From the NCBI GenBank assembly GCA_010202845.1, contig CP047921.1, forward strand, positions 660,001-692,000: a stretch of DNA of 32,000 nucleotides, read 5' to 3'. Of this stretch, positions 1-26,422 are shown one piece after another (the stretch's first letter is position 1; each line of letters begins with the position of its first letter). Under the pieces are notes generated by a model that saw nothing but the letters and a program-made list of their open reading frames with translations, ran no database searches and was not told the origin of the DNA. The position numbers and the translations under genes were made by a program. Source of the DNA: Candidatus Saccharibacteria bacterium oral taxon 488 (lineage in GTDB: Bacteria > Patescibacteriota > Saccharimonadia > Saccharimonadales > Saccharimonadaceae).

Positions 1-378
1 AATGCAGCCGTTCTGGCAGATGAATTAAAGCGCGGCGGCCTGAAATTGGTAACAGGTGGCACCAGCAACCATCTAGTGTTGGCAGATATCTATGGCAGCT
101 TCGGCATTGATGGTAAAATTGCTCAGGAGCGGCTAGAGGCCAGCGGCATCACCGCCAACGCCAATGCCATCCCCAACGACACCCTACCGCCATTCCGTCC
201 CAGCGGCCTGCGCCTCGGCACGCCAGCGGTGACGACACGCGGCATGACGGAGGCGGAGGTCAAACAGATTGCCAAGTGGATTATCACAGCGATAACCGCA
301 GAGGACCCGACAGAATACACAAAAATCAGGCAACAAACCACTAGCCTTGCGGCGCGTTTTCCGCTACCATATAACTAA
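1..378 (+). CDS. glyA: Serine hydroxymethyltransferase, C-terminal part (5' end lies outside the window)
   Basis: The frame is open from base 1. The translation ...VTGGTSNHLVLADI...ITANANAIPNDTLPPFRPSGLRLGTPAVTTRGM... matches the conserved SHMT C-terminal blocks (GGTxNHL; NxNxxPxDxxxPFxxSGxRxGTPAxTTRG). Confidence 0.9.
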   Translation, partial: NAAVLADELKRGGLKLVTGGTSNHLVLADIYGSFGIDGKIAQERLEASGITANANAIPNDTLPPFRPSGLRLGTPAVTTRGMTEAEVKQIAKWIITAITAEDPTEYTKIRQQTTSLAARFPLPYN

Positions 379-392
379 TACTAAATAACTTG

Positions 393-496
393 GGGGGCAA
401 ATCAGAAATGATTTCTTCAAACAAAACTAAAGGTTTCACATTGGTTGAGCTCTTGATCGTGATCGTGGTCATCGCTATCTTGGCTGCTATTTCGAT
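393..496. repeat. Left arm of a perfect 104-bp inverted repeat (pilin 5'UTR/SD plus the first ~30 codons)
   Basis: Base-by-base comparison shows 393-496 is the exact reverse complement of 1262-1365. Identity ends abruptly at 497/1261. Confidence 0.95.
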
Positions 497-830
497 AGCA
501 GCATACAATGGTGTATCCAACAAAGCTCGAGACGGTGAAAGACTAGCCAGTGCACGCGACATCATCAACGCCGCCGCCGTGTATAACTCAGAAAAGGGTC
601 ATTGGCCGACAATAGCAGAGCTGGGGTCGTTCAATACCATCAAACTATCCGACCAGATAAAGAGTCGCCTCGGAACCACTGCACCAAGCCCAAGCGACAG
701 GAGTAAGTATAAGTACGAGCTATGTGGAACTGCGCCGGGCTTTACTGGCGCAAAAGTTACCTACTGGAAAGAGGTAATTGATGGACACGAGACTCACGAG
801 AAAACAGTAAGTAGTGGTAGCGGCTGTTAA
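408..830 (+). CDS. Type IV pilin (prepilin-type N-terminal cleavage/methylation domain), copy A
   Basis: MISSNKTKG|FTLVELLIVIVVIAILAAISIAAYNG is a class III signal peptide: short basic leader, Gly-Phe cleavage site, Glu at +5 and a hydrophobic helix. A G-rich SD (GGGGGG, 392-397) sits about 10 nt before ATG 408. The ORF track's TTG at 390 is less likely. A C-terminal Cys pair is present (C116...C146). Confidence 0.85.
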   Translation: MISSNKTKGFTLVELLIVIVVIAILAAISIAAYNGVSNKARDGERLASARDIINAAAVYNSEKGHWPTIAELGSFNTIKLSDQIKSRLGTTAPSPSDRSKYKYELCGTAPGFTGAKVTYWKEVIDGHETHEKTVSSGSGC

Positions 831-851
831 GAAAGTAACATGACACAGAAT

Positions 852-875
852 AAACCCCGGAACTAGCCGGGGTTT
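852..875. terminator. Bidirectional rho-independent terminator between the convergent pilin genes
   Basis: Perfect 9-bp stem AAACCCCGG / CCGGGGTTT with a 6-nt loop (AACTAG). It is flanked by an A-rich run upstream and a T-rich run downstream, so it reads as hairpin plus U-tract on both strands. Confidence 0.65.
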
Positions 876-909
876 ATTTATGTCCTTCCTATTTCCTAGT
901 ATAGGGATA

Positions 910-1350
910 TTATGAACACTTACCGCTTGTTACTTCTTGGACGTGGTTTGTGCCGTAGTCAACATCTTTCCAGTACTTAACCCGAACACCAGTCGCCTCG
1001 TTCTGATTGGTCGTAGTACCACCACCATCTTTACAGAATTCATATCCATAATGATTCTTGTCGGTTTCACTTGGAGCGTTAGCATCAGTTGCCGAAATCA
1101 CAGTACCCGGAACCTTAATGGTGTTAAACGAGCCAACCTCAGAGACAGTTGGCCACTTGTCTTTCTCTGAATTATATGATGCAGCCGCATTCACAAGGTT
1201 GCGCGCATTTGATTGACGCTCATCGTCACGTGCTTTTTGTGTCACACCATTGTACGCCACAATCGAAATAGCAGCCAAGATAGCGATGACCACGATCACG
1301 ATCAAGAGCTCAACCAATGTGAAACCTTTAGTTTTGTTTGAAGAAATCAT
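910..1350 (-). CDS. Type IV pilin (prepilin-type N-terminal domain), copy B
   Basis: MISSNKTKG|FTLVELLIVIVVIAILAAISIVAYNG. The same SD (GGGGG) and 5'UTR as copy A. The C-terminal globular part is diverged from copy A but alignable (SYNSEKDKWPT / FNTIK / YWK / SG.C). Confidence 0.85.
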   Translation of the reverse strand: MISSNKTKGFTLVELLIVIVVIAILAAISIVAYNGVTQKARDDERQSNARNLVNAAASYNSEKDKWPTVSEVGSFNTIKVPGTVISATDANAPSETDKNHYGYEFCKDGGGTTTNQNEATGVRVKYWKDVDYGTNHVQEVTSGKCS

Positions 1351-1365
1351 TTCTGATTTGCCCCC
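1262..1365. repeat. Right arm of the perfect 104-bp inverted repeat
   Basis: Exact reverse complement of 393-496. Confidence 0.95.
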
Positions 1366-1394
1366 TATTTTTAGTTAGTTATTATTGTAACTTG

Positions 1395-1423
1395 ATTGTA
1401 GCAAAGCGATTATAAAAGCGCAA
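1395..1423 (-). promoter_or_regulatory. Sigma70-type promoter for pilin copy B
   Basis: On the minus strand, TTGCGC - 17 nt - TACAAT, with TGc immediately upstream of the -10 (extended -10). It lies about 45 nt upstream of ATG 1350. Confidence 0.55.
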
Positions 1424-1463
1424 GCATTTTATGAATAATTCCCTGATTCGACTCACGTTGGCC

Positions 1464-1487
1464 ATAAAAACAGAGGTAGTACCTCAA
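1464..1487 (-). terminator. Weak candidate terminator after the minor-pilin operon
   Basis: On the minus strand, GAGGT-ACT-ACCTC (5-bp stem) followed by TGTTTTTA. The stem is short. Confidence 0.3.
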
Positions 1488-1537
1488 AGCACTTCCTGCT
1501 CGGAACAGGCGTTATCCACACGACCCACCCGAACCCG

Positions 1538-2203
1538 CTATGGACACGAGGCGCCGGCAGTGCCGTTTGCAGGAACATTGATTGACTTGATGAGGCGCTG
1601 GCTGGAGTACTGAATGTTTTCACCAGCAACGGTCTTGGTCACCCCGAGGCTGACCTTGAGTGTGCCGTCGTTGATCTTGCAGACCTTGAAATTAAGCACC
1701 GTACTCGTGTCGATAATCGTTTCGACTGCGCCGTTCAACTGCCAAATACGATCACTAGCGCTCGGGCATGAGCCGTCATACATTGTCTTGCGCTTGAGTT
1801 CCGAGCCGCTCTGGAAATACTCAGTGGTATAGGTCTTGGCATCAGCGATAGCAACCGCTCCCCACGCCACACCGCAATCACTTTTTTGGATCAGACGCCG
1901 CGTCGGGCTGTAGGGGTTGTCGCTAGTAGCGAGACTATGCATGCGTACATATGATGAGGTTGTTCCCTCAAGCGTAGTACTGAGCCGCACGTCCGCCTCA
2001 ATCCGATCAAGTGCCGTTAGCACATCGCTCTGTAGTTGTGACCTGGCACTAGTGATCATTGATGAGCCAGTAAGGTTGATAATTAGGCCGATGATACCCG
2101 CCAGCACCAAGATAATGACTGGCGCAATCGCCAAGATCTCGATCAGCGTAAATCCCCGGCTGCGCTGTCGCCGATTAGAATTAGCCCGAAATGTACGTCG
2201 CAT
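1538..2203 (-). CDS. Prepilin-type minor pilin / pseudopilin
   Basis: MRRTFRANSNRRQRSRG|FTLIEILAIAPVIILVLAGIIG carries the G-F-T-L-x-E prepilin motif. AGGAGG lies 8 nt upstream of ATG 2203, which is why this start is preferred over the ORF-track start at 2230. Confidence 0.75.
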   Translation of the reverse strand: MRRTFRANSNRRQRSRGFTLIEILAIAPVIILVLAGIIGLIINLTGSSMITSARSQLQSDVLTALDRIEADVRLSTTLEGTTSSYVRMHSLATSDNPYSPTRRLIQKSDCGVAWGAVAIADAKTYTTEYFQSGSELKRKTMYDGSCPSASDRIWQLNGAVETIIDTSTVLNFKVCKINDGTLKVSLGVTKTVAGENIQYSSQRLIKSINVPANGTAGASCP

Positions 2204-2594
2204 GCACCACCTCCTGCGCTGGCGTTCCATAAGTAATAATCACTGCGACGCGAATCACTGCGACGCTGTTTGGCACTTTACAATATTCGACTCGAGCACG
2301 TACTGGATCCGGCAATGTTGGCGTGGTCGGTGGTGTCACGTGTTCAGTCTTGACCGCACCGCTGCCACAAACTTCAGACACCGTTTTGTACAGGCCGCGT
2401 TCACGCAGAATGCTATATCCGATACTGGCGGCCTCCGACGTACGGCGAGCCTCAGTATTGCGCGCCAACACCGCCCCATACAGTTGGTAGCCGCTCATTA
2501 TAAAGATCCCGGCGATAATCAAGGTGATCATCAGTTCGACAACGGTGAAACCGCCCGCATGCTTTAGAGACGTTTGCTGTTGAGTACTTGCCAT
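2181..2594 (-). CDS. Prepilin-type minor pilin / pseudopilin
   Basis: MASTQQQTSLKHAGG|FTVVELMITLIIAGIFIMSGY carries the prepilin motif with Glu+5. AAGGAG lies upstream of ATG 2594. The gene overlaps both neighbours. Confidence 0.75.
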   Translation of the reverse strand: MASTQQQTSLKHAGGFTVVELMITLIIAGIFIMSGYQLYGAVLARNTEARRTSEAASIGYSILRERGLYKTVSEVCGSGAVKTEHVTPPTTPTLPDPVRARVEYCKVPNSVAVIRVAVIITYGTPAQEVVHATYISG

Positions 2595-3151
2595 TTACCC
2601 GGCTCCTTTGTTTCTAAATGATAAAAAATCGTATAGCGCCGACAGGCCGTACCTATCTCGTCACACACGCCACCGTAAACCCCAGCAATGTAGACGTACG
2701 CACCGTTCGGATAATTAGTAATCTTGGTGTTTTCGTAATCATCCTTCTTGGCAAACAGCTGACCCACGTTAGCGATCGGATTGACACCGAATGTACCGTT
2801 AATCGCCGAAATAAGGCGTTCTCGATCCAGTGGGCCGGTCTTGGCGGCACCACCCAGTTCGTCAAACGCCGCTGCAAACTGCGCCGCAGTCATCTTGCCA
2901 GCACCGCTGGCGCCAGAAACATACGCCGGATAGCCGCCAGCAGGCTTGATGACGTTACCGGCACTGTCACGAATTTCCCGTGGATAGACGCTCTCGAGGT
3001 AGTTCTGCAAGGCTAGTACATCGGCCTCACGCTCCTTATCGCGTGCCGCTGCCTGATAATTACGAAAACTTAATGTCGCGAGCACCAGCAAAATCGCCAT
3101 GACGGCAATAGCAATGATCAGCTCGACTAGCGTAAACCCCCGTCCCTTCAT
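2564..3151 (-). CDS. Prepilin-type minor pilin / pseudopilin
   Basis: MKGRG|FTLVELIIAIAVMAILLVLATLSF. The start is uncertain, with candidates at 3151, 3178 and a TTG at 3202. ATG 3151 gives the canonical short leader. Confidence 0.7.
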   Translation of the reverse strand: MKGRGFTLVELIIAIAVMAILLVLATLSFRNYQAAARDKEREADVLALQNYLESVYPREIRDSAGNVIKPAGGYPAYVSGASGAGKMTAAQFAAAFDELGGAAKTGPLDRERLISAINGTFGVNPIANVGQLFAKKDDYENTKITNYPNGAYVYIAGVYGGVCDEIGTACRRYTIFYHLETKEPGKWQVLNSKRL

Positions 3152-3198
3152 ACCCCCATCATACTCGGAAATATGCATAAGCGCAAGCGTTTTGGCGC

Positions 3199-4218
3199 TC
3201 AAATTTCCAACGGTTCTTGCTGGATCTGGATGTGGAACTTATCGTAGACTGACTGAATGATAGCGTCACGTGCCGCCGCCAGATCGTGGTAGCTGGTCGC
3301 CGACTCATTGATCAATACCAGCGCGTTCTTGTCGTGCACCCGCATGCCGTGAAGCAATGCCCCCTTGAGCCCAGCCTGCTCGATCAACCAGCCCGTTGGC
3401 ACCTTGTGTCGGCCGTCCGGCATATCATAGGATGGGGCATCTGGATACCGTTCACGAAGTTCATTCAGTTGCCATGATTCGATCAGCGCGTTCTTGAAGA
3501 ATGAGCCAGCATTAGGTCGCTCGGTCGGATCAGGTAACTTATCAAACCGAATCGCCATCACCGCGTCGCGGATCACCTGCGGCGTAAAGGTCGTGATATT
3601 CATGTTGGTCAAATACCGCTGGAGGCCGGCGTAAAATGGCGGTTTTGGCGCTGCGTGATGGAGCTTGATGGTAATTGAGAGAATGCAGTAGCGACCGCTC
3701 GCCTCACCGCGAAAAATACTATGCCGATACGAAAACCCGCACTCTGCCGCGCTCAAGGTTACCACCCGGTCAGTCAGTGAGTCGTACGCCTCTAGCTCAG
3801 TGAGCACATCAGCAACTTCCTGGCCATACGCACCGACATTTTGCACCGGCGCAGCGCCGGCTGTACCAGGGATGGCCGACATCGCCTCAATGCCGCTCAG
3901 TCCCATGGTAACTGTACGCTTAACCACCTCATCCCATATTTCACCCGCACCAACCTTGATCGTTGCCGTCTGACCATCATCAGTCAGCACTGCAAACCCC
4001 TTGATTTGATTGAGTAGCACCACCCCCTCAAACCCTTCGTCGCGAGCGATGATATTACTGCCGCCGCCGAGGACAAAGATCGGGATACCTTGCATCTTGG
4101 CACTCTTATATAACTCTCTGACTTCATTCACCGACGTCGCCGATGCCATAAAGCGTGCTGTGCCGCCGAGCCGCATCGTCGTATATTGTTGCAACGGAAT
4201 CTCTGTTCGTATCTCCAT
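3199..4218 (-). CDS. murB: UDP-N-acetylenolpyruvoylglucosamine reductase
   Basis: An FAD-binding PCMH-type N-terminus (YTTMRLGGTARFM...IPIFVLGGGSNII) and the MurB C-terminal domain (SAGSFFKN...GWLIEQAGLKG). ATG 4218 is chosen because TGaTATAAT sits 7 nt upstream. The longer ORF-track start (4278) would run into the tRNA gene. Confidence 0.9.
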   Translation of the reverse strand: MEIRTEIPLQQYTTMRLGGTARFMASATSVNEVRELYKSAKMQGIPIFVLGGGSNIIARDEGFEGVVLLNQIKGFAVLTDDGQTATIKVGAGEIWDEVVKRTVTMGLSGIEAMSAIPGTAGAAPVQNVGAYGQEVADVLTELEAYDSLTDRVVTLSAAECGFSYRHSIFRGEASGRYCILSITIKLHHAAPKPPFYAGLQRYLTNMNITTFTPQVIRDAVMAIRFDKLPDPTERPNAGSFFKNALIESWQLNELRERYPDAPSYDMPDGRHKVPTGWLIEQAGLKGALLHGMRVHDKNALVLINESATSYHDLAAARDAIIQSVYDKFHIQIQQEPLEI

Positions 4219-4225
4219 GTGATAC

Positions 4226-4234
4226 ATTATATCA
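4226..4234 (-). promoter_or_regulatory. Extended -10 (TGaTATAAT) for murB, 7 nt upstream of its ATG (leaderless geometry)
   Basis: The minus strand reads tagaaaTGaTATAATgtatcacATGgag. No SD lies between the box and the ATG. Confidence 0.55.
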
Positions 4235-4235
4235 T

Positions 4236-4264
4236 TTCTATTTCGGCGCGGTGCGTGGTATAAT
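4236..4264 (+). promoter_or_regulatory. Promoter for the tRNA-Arg pair
   Basis: TGgTATAAT (extended -10; the -10 is at 4259-4264) ends 10 nt before the tRNA 5' end. The -35 is weak (TTCTAT/TTTCTA). Confidence 0.5.
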
Positions 4265-4274
4265 ATCCTCGTGT

Positions 4275-4351
4275 GCACCCGTAGCTCAGTGGATTAGAGT
4301 ACTTGGCTTCGAACCAAGGGGTCGCAAGTTCGAATCTTGCCGGGTGTACCA
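4275..4351 (+). tRNA. tRNA-Arg (anticodon UCG), CCA encoded
   Basis: Manual cloverleaf: acceptor GCACCCG/CGGGTGT, D stem GCTC/GAGT, anticodon stem CTTGG/CCAAG with loop CT-TCG-AA, T arm GCAAG-TTCGAAT-CTTGC, then A73 and CCA. Confidence 0.85.
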
Positions 4352-4400
4352 TGAATTTCGCGCTTTCCCACCGGACCTTTTCCTATCAGCGCGTTAGTGT

Positions 4401-4476
4401 GCCCCGTTAGCTCAACTGGATAGAGCGTTGGTTTCCGGTACCAAAGGTTGCAGGTTCGATTCCTGTGCGGGGTACC
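4401..4476 (+). tRNA. tRNA-Arg (anticodon CCG), CCA encoded
   Basis: Manual cloverleaf: acceptor GCCCCGT/GCGGGGT, D stem GCTC/GAGC, anticodon stem TTGGT/ACCAA with loop TT-CCG-GT, T arm GCAGG-TTCGATT-CCTGT, then A73 and CCA. Confidence 0.85.
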
Positions 4477-4482
4477 ACTATA

Positions 4483-5871
4483 CTAGACGATACCCTGGTC
4501 GATGACGGGGTATTTTTGTTGGAATTCCTCAGTTGTTGGCAATGTCAACTTGCCATCCGTCATGTCTTTGATTTCACCTTGAAAATAATCATACGCCTCG
4601 TGTATCGACAGACTGGGGGTGATCATCTGCGGTAATTTATGGATGAAGTCCATTGCCCATATTATTGCTGGTGTATAGACGCCTTGTTCGCCTCCACTAA
4701 AACCTATCAGCGTTTCTCCGCTCAGAGACCGCATCAACTCATCATGAAATACTTTCGCTGATTGACACTTAATTTCTTCTTCGGTAACGGTCGTGAGGCG
4801 CTCTATCGTGGCATCAAACTCGCGCCGCGATTGTCGTTGCTGTTCTTCCCGCTCTAGTCGGTCGTGTGTCTCTTTCACACCATCGAACAGCTGCAAGAAA
4901 CAGTCCGCCAAATATTCATCAGTATGACTCTCACGCGCGTCCAATTGACCATCGTTAGTTTTTATGCCCATGCTAGTACGAACTTCCAGTGCGGCTCGCT
5001 CACGCTGTATTGCGTCATACTCTTGTTGGCACTCTTGGCACTTCTTGGCAAACATAAGGGCGTCCGAGTTATATCGCGGATCTCTAAATATAAACCGAAT
5101 AATATTATTGATAGTTATTATCTGTGCATCAAATCTAAAGTTAGGGTCGACTCTGCTCGTCTCCCAAAACCACTGCAGACTAGATACCACCGGTGACGGC
5201 TTGCTCGCTCGCGCCTTGTCAATAAGGTCGAGGTTAATGGTAATGTTGTCGGGGCGTTCATGTATTACCCGACTAAGTTGTTCTACCTGCCCCTCAAGCC
5301 ATTTTCTTTCAGTCAGTCGAAAGCCAATCGACCCAACCGCACCACCCACAACAGTCCCAGCTGTCGTCAGAAATGGCTCGCCAGAACCTAGCCATGACAT
5401 ACCTCCACCAGCGACAAAGCCGCCAAATCCGAGAGCACCCATATCCCGTAGTGTTAGCCTAGTATGTCGATCTTCCCGAGCTATATCTTCAAGTTGCTCG
5501 ACAATATTCACGAGCATAGGATCTTGGCATATGGTAACAAAGCCATGGTTGGAGATGCGGCCGTTATATTCAACCATCTCAGACCCGGGGAGATCAAGAA
5601 AACACCCCCCTACAATTACCCCGTCCGCGATAACAAAACAGGAGTCCTGCACCTCTCTTGAAAGCTTCGGGTCAACCAATTCTCCATCCTCTAGCACCTT
5701 AATAGGTGTTAATATCTCCACACCCCCTCGCGGTATGGCACGACGTGTCCGCTGGGTTAGTTGCCCACTTTCATCAATAAAACCACCCTCCACAAGCCCC
5801 TCGATTGAACGAGGTGACTGCTCTTTCATCTCATTTCCGTGCCCGAAAAAATCCATACCGCTCTTAGCCAT
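4483..5871 (-). CDS. Hypothetical protein with a central glycine-zipper-like hydrophobic segment (orphan)
   Basis: A long uninterrupted ORF. ATG 5871 (MAKSGMDFF...) is preferred because TTGCCA-16-TATAAT lies 6 nt upstream. The central segment is GALGFGGFVAGGGMSWLGSG...TTAGTVVGGAVGSIGF. The C-terminal half is charged and coiled-coil-like. I recognise no family motif. Confidence 0.6.
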   Translation of the reverse strand: MAKSGMDFFGHGNEMKEQSPRSIEGLVEGGFIDESGQLTQRTRRAIPRGGVEILTPIKVLEDGELVDPKLSREVQDSCFVIADGVIVGGCFLDLPGSEMVEYNGRISNHGFVTICQDPMLVNIVEQLEDIAREDRHTRLTLRDMGALGFGGFVAGGGMSWLGSGEPFLTTAGTVVGGAVGSIGFRLTERKWLEGQVEQLSRVIHERPDNITINLDLIDKARASKPSPVVSSLQWFWETSRVDPNFRFDAQIITINNIIRFIFRDPRYNSDALMFAKKCQECQQEYDAIQRERAALEVRTSMGIKTNDGQLDARESHTDEYLADCFLQLFDGVKETHDRLEREEQQRQSRREFDATIERLTTVTEEEIKCQSAKVFHDELMRSLSGETLIGFSGGEQGVYTPAIIWAMDFIHKLPQMITPSLSIHEAYDYFQGEIKDMTDGKLTLPTTEEFQQKYPVIDQGIV

Positions 5872-5877
5872 ATGCCT

Positions 5878-5905
5878 ATTATACAATAATAAATTATATT
5901 GGCAA
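5878..5905 (-). promoter_or_regulatory. Promoter of the orphan 462-aa gene (leaderless geometry)
   Basis: On the minus strand, TTGCCA - 16 nt - TATAAT - 6 nt - ATG(5871). It sits in the 36-bp gap after the Clp-like gene's stop. Confidence 0.55.
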
Positions 5906-21128: not shown

Positions 21129-21754
21129 CGAACATATACCTCCACTTCCAAGGTTTGTGTATTCACTTGACCTGTCCCCTCGGTCTTGGACATACTGACA
21201 CTAGCGATCTGCATCCGCGTCAAGTTCTGCTCGATCAAATGCATAAACCGAAGCAGCGCCATATAATCTGTTTTTTCGTTGAGGCGGACCGACACTTTCA
21301 TGCTTTTTGGCCCGGCAGCGCTGTTTGAACCGGAGCTATTATTCGTACCCGAGGTTCCTGATGAACCCGAGTTTGACTTGGCTCCAGCCGAGCCTGATGT
21401 GAAGGTGAACCCAGCGATACCAACACCAGATTTATTGGCGTAGGCCGTGAGGTCATTGATAATTTGGTTCTGGTACTGATACTGCTGCGTTTCTGCCACT
21501 AGCTGCTGCGCCTTGGCAACACTATCCTTATATTTCTCCATCTCTTTTTCCAGCCGCGCTAGATTCTGCACTTTAGCATCAACCGCTTTTGCCTCAGTCT
21601 GAATTTTAGAAACTTCCTCGGCAGTACCTTGCAGCATGGTGTAGCCAAAATAGACGACCCCTCCCATGCCGACCAAGATCAGTACCAGCGACAGCGCAAA
21701 GACGATCCGCATGGTCACCGCCGGTGTCATTTTTTCTCGTTTTCTCTCACTCAT
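21125..21754 (-). CDS. pilO: PilO-like type IV pilus alignment protein (tentative)
   Basis: Position after pilM-pilN. N-terminal TM helix, then a coiled coil (AEEVSKIQTEAKAVDAKVQNLARLEKEMEKYK), an S/G/N-rich linker and a C-terminal alpha/beta region. The call rests on architecture and synteny, not a diagnostic motif. Confidence 0.5.
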   Translation of the reverse strand: MSERKREKMTPAVTMRIVFALSLVLILVGMGGVVYFGYTMLQGTAEEVSKIQTEAKAVDAKVQNLARLEKEMEKYKDSVAKAQQLVAETQQYQYQNQIINDLTAYANKSGVGIAGFTFTSGSAGAKSNSGSSGTSGTNNSSGSNSAAGPKSMKVSVRLNEKTDYMALLRFMHLIEQNLTRMQIASVSMSKTEGTGQVNTQTLEVEVYVR

Positions 21755-22311
21755 TGCTTCGCAACCTCCGGCACCATCGTCACATTAATTGTAATATTGA
21801 TCGGATAGCCGTCCTTGTTTTCTTTCTCGGCCACCGCCGAGGCGAGATTAACATCCTTAAAGAGGCTTGACTGCTGAAAACTGTCCTTGAGCCGCAGCGC
21901 ATCGCCATACGTTTTACCGCGCGCGTTGATAGTCATCGGCGTGCCGAGCTTCTTGCTATCTAGCGTCAACGTTTGCAAAATTGTCCCCGACGGCATCGCC
22001 TGAGCGATCTTGAGTGCTACCTTTGAATACCGCACATCTTTATCGAGAATCGCCTTGGCAATCTTGAGGTTTGCGCTGAACGATTCATAATCCTGCTGAA
22101 CTTTTTGATATTGCAGCGCTCGACGATTACCTGTTTCAATCGCCTGTCGAGCAGTTGTCCGAGTATGCGCCATAATAAAGTAGATACCCGCTGTCGCCAC
22201 GATGAGTAAGAAGCCAAGAATCAACGACACCACGCAGTAACGCCACAGTATCACATTTGACCGGCCAGCGATAATCTCGCGTTTAACTTTCGGCGGTAAT
22301 AGATTAATCAT
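21751..22311 (-). CDS. pilN: Type IV pilus assembly protein PilN
   Basis: N-terminal MINLLPPK (the INLLP PilN signature), followed by one TM helix and a periplasm-type domain. Overlaps pilM and pilO. Confidence 0.75.
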   Translation of the reverse strand: MINLLPPKVKREIIAGRSNVILWRYCVVSLILGFLLIVATAGIYFIMAHTRTTARQAIETGNRRALQYQKVQQDYESFSANLKIAKAILDKDVRYSKVALKIAQAMPSGTILQTLTLDSKKLGTPMTINARGKTYGDALRLKDSFQQSSLFKDVNLASAVAEKENKDGYPINITINVTMVPEVAKQ

Positions 22312-23413
22312 GCCAAATCTCCTCCGCTCGCACTAGCGACAAACCAGCTGCCGTCATGAACCGCGGTCGTAGCTGTTTGGCCGGTGGTGCTAAATTATTA
22401 AAGTTCAGCGACTGCCACGGACTGGCCACTCGTGCTGGCAAGGTCAGCTCGCCCGTAAAGTACTCACCAAGCCCCGGCACGCTACTGCCGCTACCAACGA
22501 TCAATACCTGCTCAAGGCGTGACTCATCCGGGAAGCGATCGGTGTAGTAGCGAATAACTTTCTGGATTTCACCGATGATCCGCTGCAGGCTCGGCTTTAG
22601 TGCCTCGGTAATTTTTTCTTGACGAGGGCCAGTGTTGAGGCCATTAAGCACCTTGAATTGGTGCGCCGTCTCAAGTGGTACGTTCAATTTTTTAGCGATG
22701 TCAAGCGTCAATGTATTGCCACCAATGTTTAGACCACCGGTCACACGAATTGCCGCATCAAGAATAGCGATATCGGTCGTCGCCGGGCCGATGTCAACGA
22801 TGACTGTCGGCAGCGACCCCTCTTTGGTGCGCTCAAGCAGTCGCGCCACCGCATTGATACTCGGCTCAATCATTGCCACCTCAATACCGCACGATTCAAC
22901 AATTGCCAGCTGCTCGTCAACGATCTTTTGCGGCACCGCGCACATCAAGACTGATAAGTTCTCTTTGCCGCGCTTGATAATCTGATGATCGACGTAGAGC
23001 GAATCAAGCGGCATCGGCACATACTGCTCGACCTCGAGATTCACCGCCTCTTCAATCTTATTCTCCTGCTTGATCGGCAGCGCAAAGGTGCGTGCATATG
23101 TCTTGGTCGTCGGTAGTCCCAGCACCACGCGGTTACTGCCGAGCCGCCCGACAATATTTTTTTCAAACATTTGATTGATCTTGCCGCAGAGATACTCTGC
23201 CCGGTCATCGCTCTCGTCCTTCGCCGGATCCAGCTCAATTGCGCCGTATCCGTGCACCGTCATCCGTGCCATGTCGACTGACATTACCCGAACGCCAGCC
23301 TTGTTAATATCAAGCCCGATGATCGGCTTTGACTTGTAGAAAATATTTGCCACTATCGTTTGCCCACATCTCTTCTTTTTGTTAAGTATAGCATAAGCAT
23401 TTTGAAAAACCAA
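22304..23413 (-). CDS. pilM: Type IV pilus assembly ATPase-fold protein PilM (actin-like)
   Basis: IIGLDINKAGVRVMSV at the N-terminus, VIVDIGPATTDIAI, and LIVGSGSSVPGLGEYF, the phosphate-binding motifs of the PilM/FtsA-like actin fold. The start is uncertain (TTG 23413 or GTG 23353). Confidence 0.8.
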   Translation of the reverse strand: MVFQNAYAILNKKKRCGQTIVANIFYKSKPIIGLDINKAGVRVMSVDMARMTVHGYGAIELDPAKDESDDRAEYLCGKINQMFEKNIVGRLGSNRVVLGLPTTKTYARTFALPIKQENKIEEAVNLEVEQYVPMPLDSLYVDHQIIKRGKENLSVLMCAVPQKIVDEQLAIVESCGIEVAMIEPSINAVARLLERTKEGSLPTVIVDIGPATTDIAILDAAIRVTGGLNIGGNTLTLDIAKKLNVPLETAHQFKVLNGLNTGPRQEKITEALKPSLQRIIGEIQKVIRYYTDRFPDESRLEQVLIVGSGSSVPGLGEYFTGELTLPARVASPWQSLNFNNLAPPAKQLRPRFMTAAGLSLVRAEEIWHD

Positions 23414-24640
23414 CTATCCTTTAATTTGATTTGCTAATCCAGTAATCGGCATCATCACCGCCGCCGCGATCAAGCCGACCATACCACCCATAAAGACGAT
23501 CATCACCGGCTCAATCGTCGAACTCAAGCCGCTAATCGCCGCATCGACTTCTTCCTCATAAAAATCCGCCACCTTGACCAGCACCTTATCCGTTTGCCCC
23601 GTTTCCTCACCGACCGCCAGCATCTGGCCAACGATTGGTGGATAGAGATCTTCGCGCTCATTGATAATCCGCGACAAAACCTCGCCATTCTTAATGCGCT
23701 TGGCAGCATCAAGCAATGAATCTTGATATACCGTATTACCAACTGCCCGGGCTGTTACTTCCAGCGCCTCGAGTACCGACACGCCCGCACCGATCAGCGC
23801 TGAGAAGGTACGGGTAAACCGCGCCACCGCCACCTTGCGAATAATCTTGCTGATGATCGGCGCTTTCAGGACGAAATGATGGAACTTGACTTTACCTTTT
23901 GGGGACTTGATGTAGCGAAGCAGCGCATACACACCGCCAAATAGCAACGGGAAAATAATATACCAAAAACTCACCATAAACTGGCTGATACTCATCAGTA
24001 TCTGCGTCAGCGCCGGCAGCTCTGCGTCCTCACCCGCCAGATCCTTAATCGTCTTGCCAATCATCGGCAGCACAAAAATCATCAAGCCAAAGAACGCCCC
24101 GATAGTGATGACGATCAGCACCATCGGATAGGTCATGGCGCTCTTGATCTTCTTTTTCATTGATGAGTTCTTTTCCTGCTGCAGAGCCAGCCGCTTCAAA
24201 ATATCGTCCAAAATACCACCCGTTTCACCAGCCCGCACCATGTTCACATACACATCGCTGAAGGCCTCGGGGTACTTACTCAGTGCATCAGCGAACGAGG
24301 CACCGCCTTCAATCTCCTTGGACACCGCGTTCAAAATCTCGCGAAAATGTGGACTCTCGGCGTGCTGCGCCATTGAGTTGAGTGACCTGAGAATTGGCAC
24401 ACCGGCAGACACCATGGTGCTAAGCTGCCTGGTAAAGCCAACCAGCTCCTCGGTCGGCACTGACTTCTTGCCACCCCCAAAGCGAAAACCTTTCTTCTCG
24501 TCACCAGCCTCCTTGAGGTCGACCAACCTCATACCCTGAGTTTGAATGAGCTGAATGGCACTGGCGCGGCTACTGGCTTCTAGCTCGCCGTTGATCGGCT
24601 GATTATTATTTTTAGTTGCGATATATTTAAATTTTGTCAT
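23414..24640 (-). CDS. pilC: Type IV pilus platform protein PilC (GspF family)
   Basis: Two T2SS-F repeats (FTRQLSTMVSAGVPILRSL... / FTRTFSALIGAGVSVLEAL...) and three TM segments. Confidence 0.9.
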   Translation of the reverse strand: MTKFKYIATKNNNQPINGELEASSRASAIQLIQTQGMRLVDLKEAGDEKKGFRFGGGKKSVPTEELVGFTRQLSTMVSAGVPILRSLNSMAQHAESPHFREILNAVSKEIEGGASFADALSKYPEAFSDVYVNMVRAGETGGILDDILKRLALQQEKNSSMKKKIKSAMTYPMVLIVITIGAFFGLMIFVLPMIGKTIKDLAGEDAELPALTQILMSISQFMVSFWYIIFPLLFGGVYALLRYIKSPKGKVKFHHFVLKAPIISKIIRKVAVARFTRTFSALIGAGVSVLEALEVTARAVGNTVYQDSLLDAAKRIKNGEVLSRIINEREDLYPPIVGQMLAVGEETGQTDKVLVKVADFYEEEVDAAISGLSSTIEPVMIVFMGGMVGLIAAAVMMPITGLANQIKG

Positions 24641-26422
24641 TTATTGCTCCCTTGTTGCTCTCAAAACTTCCTCTAGCGTTGTCACGCCACGCAGCGACTT
24701 GACAAAACCGTCCGTCTGCATTGTCACCATTCCTTCAGTAATCGCCTGCTGCTGAATCTCATTACTAGTGGCATTGGCGGTGATCATTTTTTGGATTGGA
24801 ATCGAAATACCGAGAACCTCGTAGATACCGACGCGCCCCTTGAAGCCATTATGGCCGCACTCGTCACAGCCCTCGGGATTTGGTCGCCATAAATATTGAA
24901 TCGTCACGTCAGTCGAGCCGAGCGGTGTATTGCCGCCAATCTTGTCAGCTGCCGCCTGCTGCTCCAGCGCATGCAGTCGCTGCATCGAGCCCTGCTTGAG
25001 ATTAAACATCTGAACGATGTAGGCCAGCTCTCCGGCGTCCGGCACATATTGCTGACGACAATGCATACACAATCGCCGCACCAAGCGCTGGCCGATCACC
25101 GCCTTGACCGTCGAAGCGATCAGGAACGGCTCAATTCCCATATCCAATAGACGCGGCAGACAGGTCGCTGCGTTGTTGGTGTGGAGGGTTGAAAACACCA
25201 AGTGCCCAGTCAGCGCTGCCTGCACACCGAGGTTGGCGGTCTCGCCGTCGCGAATCTCACCAACCATGATGATGTTCGGGTCTTGACGGAGCAGTGCGCG
25301 CAGTCCTGAGGCGAAGGTCATGCCGGCTTTTGAGTTAGTCTGGGTTTGGTTGACCCCGGGGATTTTGTATTCAACCGGGTCTTCAATGGTTGAGATATTC
25401 ACATCTGGCGTATTAAGTTCTGATAGCACACTAAACAAGCTAGTCGACTTTCCCGAACCAGTTGGCCCGGTCACCAAGATCATACCATTTGGTTGCGCCA
25501 TAGCGTCTTTAAGTGTACTCAGCGATAACCCCCAATAGCCGAGGCTATCGAGGGCAACCGCCTGGTTGGACTCGTCCAAAATACGCATGACGATCTTCTC
25601 GCCATCAGCGATCGGCAGCGTCGACACACGCAGCGCGTATTGCTTACCAGAAACCTTGATCTTGAAGCGACCATCTTGCGGCACGCGGCGTTCATCAATT
25701 TTTAGGTTTGACAAGATCTTGATGCGGCTAACCAGCGCACCTTGGACATTGCGCGGCAATTTATTCACTTCCTTGAGCACGCCGTCGATTCGGTAACGAA
25801 CTTGGACGAAATCCTCGCGCGGCTCAATGTGAATGTCGGAAGCACCCGACTTGATAGCATACTCGAGCAGCAAATTAACCGTCTGGGCGATCGGCGAATT
25901 CTCAGAAATCTCCTCCTCAGAGACGTTTTGTGAATCTGACTCAGCGCCGCTCTGGATTGACACCACCTCATCCAGCTCATCGGTAATATTACCGCGATAA
26001 TTTTCCAGGCAATCAAGGATATTATTTTTTGTCGCCAGGAACACCTTAATGTTGTAGCCAATCTCTTTCTGGATGAAATTCAGCGCCTGCACATCATCCG
26101 GATCTTCCATCGCCAGACTCAAGACGCCATTATCATCGACGGCAAACAATACGACATTGTACTGACGGGCGATGTGCTCGGGGATACGCTTAAGAACATC
26201 GTCAGGAATATCCTTTGGCTCAATGGTTACAAACGGCACATTGATGTATGCGCCAATCTTTTGCCCGAGCTGTACCTCGCTCAGGATTTTGTGCTCCAAG
26301 ATAATCGTCTGTAACGAATGGTGCGTACGTTCCGCCTCCATCTTTAACTCGGCCAGCTGTGACTCAGAAATTACCTCACCCTGGCGCAAAATCTTCTCAA
26401 TACTACTGTCAGAAATGCGCAT
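24641..26422 (-). CDS. pilB: Type IV pilus assembly ATPase PilB (GspE family)
   Basis: GspE N-terminal domain; Walker [13 protein letters not shown]; Asp/His boxes ([19 protein letters not shown]); tetracysteine motif (C..C...C..C near CMHC...CDEC). Confidence 0.92.

Follow-up and report, generated by a model that had tools for sequence, protein, structure and literature searches.

Inverted gene duplicates can be kept alike by homologous gene conversion, and tufA and tufB of Salmonella are a classic case of such concerted evolution. For pilE and pilS of Neisseria, PMC3547852 and PMC13463697 describe pilin antigenic variation by unidirectional gene conversion. Piv, a dedicated site-specific recombinase, brings about pilin inversion in Moraxella, where pilin is expressed from a single site (PMC4073114). 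In clonal pneumococcal populations, the two orientations of the spnIII locus can readily be measured, and inversion changes the active gene (PMC6620402). Here, we describe a pilin locus of Candidatus Saccharibacteria bacterium oral taxon 488, located in a stretch of 32,000 nt (contig CP047921.1, positions 660,001 to 692,000; the whole stretch is called the window, and positions refer to it). Two convergent type IV major-pilin genes, A and B, start within the two arms of a perfect inverted repeat. We are fairly confident that the constant 5' modules of A and B are homogenised by recurrent gene conversion, i.e. by concerted evolution.

The best-supported mechanism for this locus is a well-known phenomenon, in which general homologous recombination makes inverted paralogues evolve in concert. 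As with tufA/tufB, inverted paralogues on one chromosome would be homogenised by non-reciprocal general recombination with no dedicated recombinase or site. In contrast to tufA/tufB, homogenisation is limited to the 5' constant module (~100-140 nt), the remainder of the genes is highly diverged, and the copies face each other at a distance of 0.9 kb. The likeness to Neisseria lies in a type IV major pilin that appears to exchange sequence with a nearby copy by unidirectional conversion, including a patch in one contig (L138, see below). However, the Neisseria donors are many, promoterless and devoid of the 5' constant region, whereas the only donor here is complete and has a ribosome-binding region of its own, and the best-documented tracts lie in the constant module and not in the variable region. 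Gene A is thus no silent donor, and no G-quadruplex motif was found on either strand of window positions 1-3300. With the Piv systems of Moraxella bovis and M. lacunata the locus shares two opposite-oriented pilin variable regions, with recombination sites within the conserved 5' coding region. The spnIII locus likewise has inverted repeats of ~85 nt within paralogous coding sequences. In contrast to Moraxella, a Pfam scan of 30 open reading frames (ORFs) across the window revealed no integrase, invertase, Piv/IS110-like protein, transposase or other recombinase, and A and B are both full ORFs that start with ATG behind identical ribosome-binding leaders, so that there is no single expression site. 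Both orientations were not reliably observed, unlike in Moraxella and spnIII. The shufflon-like switch that an earlier note on this DNA had proposed was not supported on these three counts, and the locus is not a Piv-type invertible switch, a shufflon or a Neisseria-type system. In the literature searched, we found neither gene conversion nor inversion of pilin genes described for Saccharibacteria. The mechanism itself is not new; conversion among pilin paralogues is textbook knowledge.

The two arms of the repeat (Table 1) are exact reverse complements at 104 of 104 nt, as the earlier note had claimed, and enclose an interior of 765 nt (497-1261). A weaker extension of the pair comprises 251 nt at 80% identity (393-643 / 1115-1365), and the repeat search detected no other long repeat in the window. 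Each arm contains a 15-nt 5' leader (GGGGGCAAATCAGAA) followed by coding nt 1-89, corresponding to codons 1-29 and two bases of codon 30. Within codons 1-29, A and B use the same codon at 28/28 degenerate conserved positions, while in codons 31-83 the same codon is found at only 11 of 32 conserved residues (Fisher p = 2.9e-8 for codon identity inside versus beyond the repeat; (11/32)^28 ~ 1e-13). The described pattern of zero synonymous change beside many synonymous changes could therefore be confirmed. The accompanying argument, that protein-level selection is insufficient to account for it, is supported by this codon test and by the comparative loci.

The comparative set comprised ~35 distinct locus haplotypes, and perfect runs between the arms were measured in 28 distinct two-gene haplotypes (loci are cited by L numbers, pilin proteins by P numbers). 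The annotations of homologues read Candidatus Saccharibacteria, oral taxon 488 or Nanogingivalaceae, and the related contigs derive from human oral metagenomes. A pattern search of metagenomes, checked on known loci, yielded 6 loci; a contig scan with an alignment of pilins picked up so many generic pilin N-termini that L013-L015 were its only useful loci. The gene order murB, three minor-pilin-like genes, major pilin (X position) and convergent glyA is conserved, and gene B occupies the X position of the window. Gene A is an extra inverted paralogue between the X position and glyA. It is found in several lineages and is absent in L096-098, L099 and L108-110. The A type is fairly conserved, its variable parts being 78-90% identical across lineages, and its X-position partners belong to very different types, here called B, C and D, with 59-81% identity in their variable parts.

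The duplication is old, since A-type orthologues occupy the same slot in lineages with glyA 3' ends that are only 82-94% identical, and since the variable parts of A and B are saturated at synonymous sites. Moreover, the 89-nt coding part of the repeat is able to diverge: single-pilin orthologues differ from B at 10-15 of these positions, all of them synonymous, and the arms of the L104/L107 lineage, which are not homogenised, differ by 12 nt and a codon indel. In other genomes the two arms vary in concert. Both arms of L004 carry T54, T66, C84 and T99, both arms of L015 carry T54 and C84, both arms of L100 carry C54, and both arms of L002 carry T45. Position 54 thereby occurs in three states, each as a concordant arm pair, and in L004, L015 and L100 the arms are identical within the genome and unlike those of other strains. 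A further case is provided by L114, where gene A carries the MVSSKNKVK leader of its partner, including the extra codon. Its 5' module matches the partner at 90/92 nt, compared to 72/89 nt and a 3-nt gap against the closest A orthologue (L104 A), although the variable parts of these two A genes are 87.5% identical. At the level of sequence comparison, we consider this pattern decisive for exchange between the copies. In L114, L004, L015 and L100, paralogues of one genome resemble each other more than their orthologues, a hallmark of concerted evolution.

A second hallmark is a mosaic structure with variable tract ends. The inner edge of identity lies at coding nt 89 in the window and in L006, L093 and L095, at nt 95 in L015, and at nt 107 in L004, L100-103, L111, L115 and L116. 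Deeper tracts were seen in P0038 and P0053, the only two mosaics of A and X sequence obtained by protein painting, which was coarse owing to a gappy alignment. In all strains with an edge at nt 107, the A-native sequence ATA GCA GCA is replaced by the B-like ATT GTG GCG, and the A-native haplotype at nt 90-96 is overwritten by B-like sequence in these strains and in L015. The lengths of the perfect runs were 29, 41, 59, 68, 101, 104, 110 and 122 nt. Every inner edge falls at a mismatch cluster where the proteins begin to differ. Sister strains often have 1-3 mismatches within the repeat, which fits a balance of mutation and conversion. The knife-edge boundary reported previously is hence real in the window and not a fixed feature, as the first mismatch cluster differs between strains. 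The direction of transfer, as read from L114 and from the nt 90-107 tract, is from X to A. Taken together, the compared loci document concerted evolution, variable tract ends and two cases of X-to-A transfer. The suggestion of the earlier note that gene conversion acts on the 5' module is supported by the co-varying arms, L114, the moving tract ends and the divergent, unconverted L104 pair. Consistent with such exchange, Saccharibacteria are reported to be naturally competent (PMC10187176).

Several observations weigh against this interpretation. Within the clade of the window, the 5' modules are only 0-3/89 nt apart, while the glyA flanks are 6-10% apart, so that codon-level selection or inter-strain exchange probably also damps divergence of the 5' module. 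The evidence is wholly comparative, with no recombination event directly observed, and metagenome assembly itself can blur near-identical repeats. Two contigs with flipped junctions (L129 and L134, see below) leave room for reciprocal exchange too. Finally, identity of the 15-nt leader needs no conversion, as it is invariant everywhere. The leader GGGGGCAAATCAGAA was found unchanged before the ATG of every major-pilin gene of the family examined (L001-L138; 59-100% protein identity), including single-pilin species and the non-homogenised L104 pair. It is therefore held by selection on the translation-initiation region, and the repeat can be taken as a signal of homogenisation for its coding part and not, as had been assumed earlier, for the upstream 15 nt. 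This stretch (393-407 and 1351-1365) is an unusually rigid translation-initiation region. Just before gene A (388-397), a homopolymer of variable length adjoins the ribosome-binding region; most strains have 6 G here, whereas L004 and L114 have 7.

The invariant leader and the low divergence of the 5' modules relative to the glyA flanks would also be explained if the copies never exchanged sequence and identity were kept purely by nucleotide-level selection, acting on translation initiation, codon usage or the mRNA structure of a gene with very high expression. This is highly unlikely. In orthologues of other lineages, the 89 coding nt of the repeat carry 10-18 synonymous changes, some genomes have private variants that are present in both of their arms, gene A of L114 acquired the extra codon of its partner, and the inner boundary shifts between strains. 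Based on the patterns of L004, L114 and the nt 90-107 tract, nucleotide-level selection was rejected as the sole cause and accepted for the 15-nt leader. The earlier note had itself named another alternative, namely that the 5' end was duplicated in this genome, in inverted orientation, so recently that the arms have yet to diverge. Perfect identity with a sharp edge indeed resembles a fresh duplication junction, but the same two-gene layout and the same edge at -15 recur in many of the lineages with 82-94% glyA identity, sister strains show other inner ends and occasional mismatches, and L104 displays the unconverted state. Recent duplication is refuted by these comparative loci, and we give it next to no credence.

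A further proposal was that the 765-bp interior is regularly inverted through crossover of the 104-nt arms, which would swap the variable domains between the strong pilA1 promoter upstream of gene B and glyA. The geometry would permit this, as the arms are perfect, both variable domains lie in the interior together with a symmetric terminator, and every gene would stay intact. There is also a precedent in spnIII, which inverts at an 85-bp repeat without site-specific recombinase or RecA (PMC6620402). The orientation was called for each haplotype from the flank preceding each variable region. The A type was located behind glyA in 32/33 haplotypes and the X type behind the promoter wherever this flank was visible, L134 excepted. 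All contigs >10 kb are canonical, among them the complete genome CP039999.1 (L133) and the 853-kb contig of the window itself; none of the ~30 long contigs and complete genomes examined was flipped. These span at least 8 lineage or partner combinations, with A+B, A+C and A+D pairings and both leader variants. Flipped junctions were present in two short contigs. L129 (= L136; 1236 bp, ERZ27319386 k141_34191) reads promoter flank, inverted repeat, A variable part, terminator, X variable part, inverted repeat and 12 nt of promoter flank; the promoter flank is joined to the A variable part, and each segment is 100% identical to the canonical L093/L126. L134 (5796 bp, ERZ26859091 k119_71567) joins glyA to a pilA1-type variable part, in the order EPSP synthase, glyA, inverted repeat, X variable part, terminator, A variable part, 65 nt of inverted repeat and contig end. 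However, L129 has the promoter flank at both ends and cannot represent one genome, and in L134 an interior 100% identical to the L093 type is combined with a glyA flank that reaches only 91-93% identity with any known lineage, a pattern typical of a mis-join between strains at the shared repeat. Both contigs end abruptly inside or just past the repeat. A de Bruijn assembler may yield such joins at low coverage when the shared 104-nt repeat is crossed at k <= 99, and a mis-join arising at k < 104 could plausibly be carried into k = 119 or 141. Both contigs are likely mis-joins at the shared repeat, and they were rejected as proof of inversion. In addition, as both genes keep complete start regions, inversion would exchange promoters and turn nothing off. 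A regular flip that changes the expressed pilin is accordingly improbable: all contigs >10 kb are canonical and no recombinase was found among the 30 scanned ORFs of the window. Comparison of related loci, which had been suggested as a check, showed that the sharp edge recurs at varying positions, while the flipped configuration was confined to the two short, mis-join-compatible contigs. By analogy with spnIII, a minority flipped population with low-frequency inversion would be mechanistically possible.

Recurrent gene conversion of the constant module could operate as follows. Gene A is an old inverted accessory paralogue that was inserted between pilA1 and glyA. The 5' constant modules encode the leader peptide and the N-terminal assembly helix, a protein segment near-invariant across the family, and so long near-identical stretches of DNA would be kept in both copies. 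These stretches would support recurrent, short-tract, non-reciprocal homologous recombination between the inverted copies, and conversion would repeatedly wipe out synonymous differences. The outer tract end would be set at -15, where upstream homology stops; the flanks beyond are unrelated (glyA coding sequence versus promoter). The inner end would be the first mismatch cluster, at codons 30-32 in the window and at codons 37-38 or further elsewhere. A tract bounded in this way produces the knife edge. As to the enzymology, host RecA-type recombination in naturally transformable Saccharibacteria would presumably suffice, and we infer that homogenisation arises as a by-product and does not constitute a dedicated switch. 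It probably has the side benefit of preserving, in the accessory pilin, the leader and assembly helix of the essential major pilin, so that both subunits would use the same peptidase and machinery.

Exchange may extend to the variable region. In the contig L138 (1032 bp, ena:ERZ27319294:k141_251659), the pilA1 promoter is followed by a mosaic pilin gene (contig positions 384-806). Over nt 1-293, and again from ~nt 369 up to its end, this gene has exactly the sequence of the D-type partner of L111. The patch of ~75 nt in between (SKYLYELCGTAPNV...) is identical to the neighbouring A type and shows ~20 differences and indels relative to D. At its left edge, D and A have 7 nt in common, which is too short for a mis-join at k >= 21, and the mosaic therefore probably exists in the reads. 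It is a possible A-to-pilA1 conversion in the surface-exposed part, comparable to one Neisseria mini-cassette event, and a single observation. One may thus consider A and pilA1 as a minimal two-cassette system of pilin variation, in which constant tracts are converted routinely, variable patches as in L138 occasionally, and perhaps whole interiors are inverted as in L129. We regard this extended reading as doubtful. If true, subpopulations with altered surface epitopes would arise on the essential thick pilus of a genome-reduced episymbiont, by general recombination alone and with no dedicated recombinase, G-quadruplex element or silent-cassette array.

Variation at the X position was also noticed in other respects. 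The same A protein (P0057) was found beside 142- and 143-aa partners in different samples, and types B, C and D occur at the X position on otherwise syntenic flanks (L014, L104, L111, L112, L117-L124). The X-position gene of L014 resembles a B-type front half fused to a C-type back half. Allele swapping at the X position seems to be common. Overall, many oral lineages carry a second, inverted pilA1-like gene; the constant module of gene A would be continually overwritten by the gene at the pilA1 position, to which it would occasionally donate, and the variable region at the pilA1 position would be swapped among very different types. This gives a concrete, testable picture of how surface-pilus diversity may originate in bacteria that cannot be cultivated alone. 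Since co-occurring strains have the same constant module, both in their own two copies and in comparison with each other, it also constitutes a mis-assembly hotspot in oral metagenomes.

The coordinates of the locus are compiled in Table 1. QHU94058.1 and QHU94059.1, the products of A and B, are encoded on the 853-kb contig and share the N-terminus MISSNKTKG followed by FTLVELLIVIVVIAILAAI, a prepilin leader and N-terminal helix typical of type IV pilins. Both have a class III signal peptide, i.e. a short basic leader ending in Gly, a hydrophobic helix and Glu at mature position 5, and the records of both list PF07963. An alignment of 18 pilin sequences shows C106 and C145 without any change. 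This Cys pair, the adjoining minor pilins and homologues of PilB, PilC, PilM and PilN (21751-26422) place A and B in a major-pilin context. Judged by genomic slot and promoter, gene B is orthologous to Saccharibacteria pilA1. The same slot of a single-pilin lineage holds P0041, which a source names pilA1; from this name we infer that it is the pilA1 of N. lyticus TM7x studied in PMC11623550. TM7x pilA1 is reported to encode a major pilin, to be highly expressed and to resist deletion, and it belongs to an essential thick pilus with twitching among its functions (PMC11623550).

Table 1. Features of the pilin locus, in window positions
Feature	Position	Strand	Description or basis
glyA 3' end (serine hydroxymethyltransferase)	1-378	+	ORF 46-378; stop TAA 376-378; full orthologues carry PF00464 SHMT
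Left arm of inverted repeat	393-496	+	15-nt ribosome-binding leader and gene A coding nt 1-89; matches the reverse-complemented right arm at all 104 nt
Gene A, accessory type IV major-pilin paralogue, 140 aa, QHU94058.1	408-830	+	ORF, translation, PF07963 N_methyl
Hairpin, candidate bidirectional intrinsic terminator	848-879	.	G+C-rich, symmetric, A-run and U-run flanks, shared by A and B
Gene B, positional orthologue of pilA1 (T4P-1 thick-pilus major pilin), 146 aa, QHU94059.1	910-1350	-	ORF, genomic slot
Right arm of inverted repeat	1262-1365	-	Leader and gene B coding nt 1-89
Gene B promoter	1395-1423	-	-35 TTGCGC (1418-1423), 17-nt spacer, extended -10 TGcTACAAT (1395-1403; TACAAT 1395-1400)
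Three minor-pilin-like genes	1538-2230, 2181-2594, 2564-3202	-	GFTL(I/V)E motifs; N_methyl matches for two; conserved synteny
murB	3199-4278		Upstream of minor-pilin-like genes

Gene A starts 29 nt past the glyA stop codon with no terminator in between and is probably co-transcribed with glyA. Both this position directly behind glyA and the TTGCGC-17-TACAAT promoter of gene B agree with the earlier note. The X-position promoter, TTG[CT]G-17-TG[AC]TACA[AC]T with an extended -10, is conserved in all lineages examined, including single-pilin species; a generic promoter scan missed it in gene B because its -35 has only 3/6 matches. In the 79-nt spacer between the convergent genes lies a hairpin (AAUAAACCCCGG-loop-CCGGGGUUUAUU) that is 100% conserved across strains. 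Folding of positions 828-912 gave a free energy of -30.2 kcal/mol (z -4.64), and 0/200 shuffled sequences were as stable.

The minor-pilin-like genes are co-directional with gene B and upstream of it. In relatives, synteny was seen only for murB, the pilins, glyA and an EPSP synthase fusion. A tandem exact 14-mer (AATCACTGCGACGC) with a 1-nt gap is located at 2238-2266, where the listed ORF start of the third minor-pilin-like gene (1538-2230) meets the second one (2181-2594). Elsewhere in the window, an ORF of 467 aa (4483-5886, minus strand) between two tRNA-Arg genes (4275-4477) and a ClpB-like gene had no Pfam match. In L004 and L009 its slot holds two shorter genes (66 or 92 aa, and 344 aa), and the ORF may be disrupted or variable in some strains. 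Finally, four proteins with NUDIX domains are encoded in these 32 kb of a ~0.85-Mb genome (12657-13334, 15218-16555, 17215-17742 and 27477-28181); an NrtR winged-helix domain is present in one of them, and another is a fusion with a kinase-like APH domain. Their genes adjoin NAPRTase and isochorismatase genes, in what looks like a NAD salvage neighbourhood.

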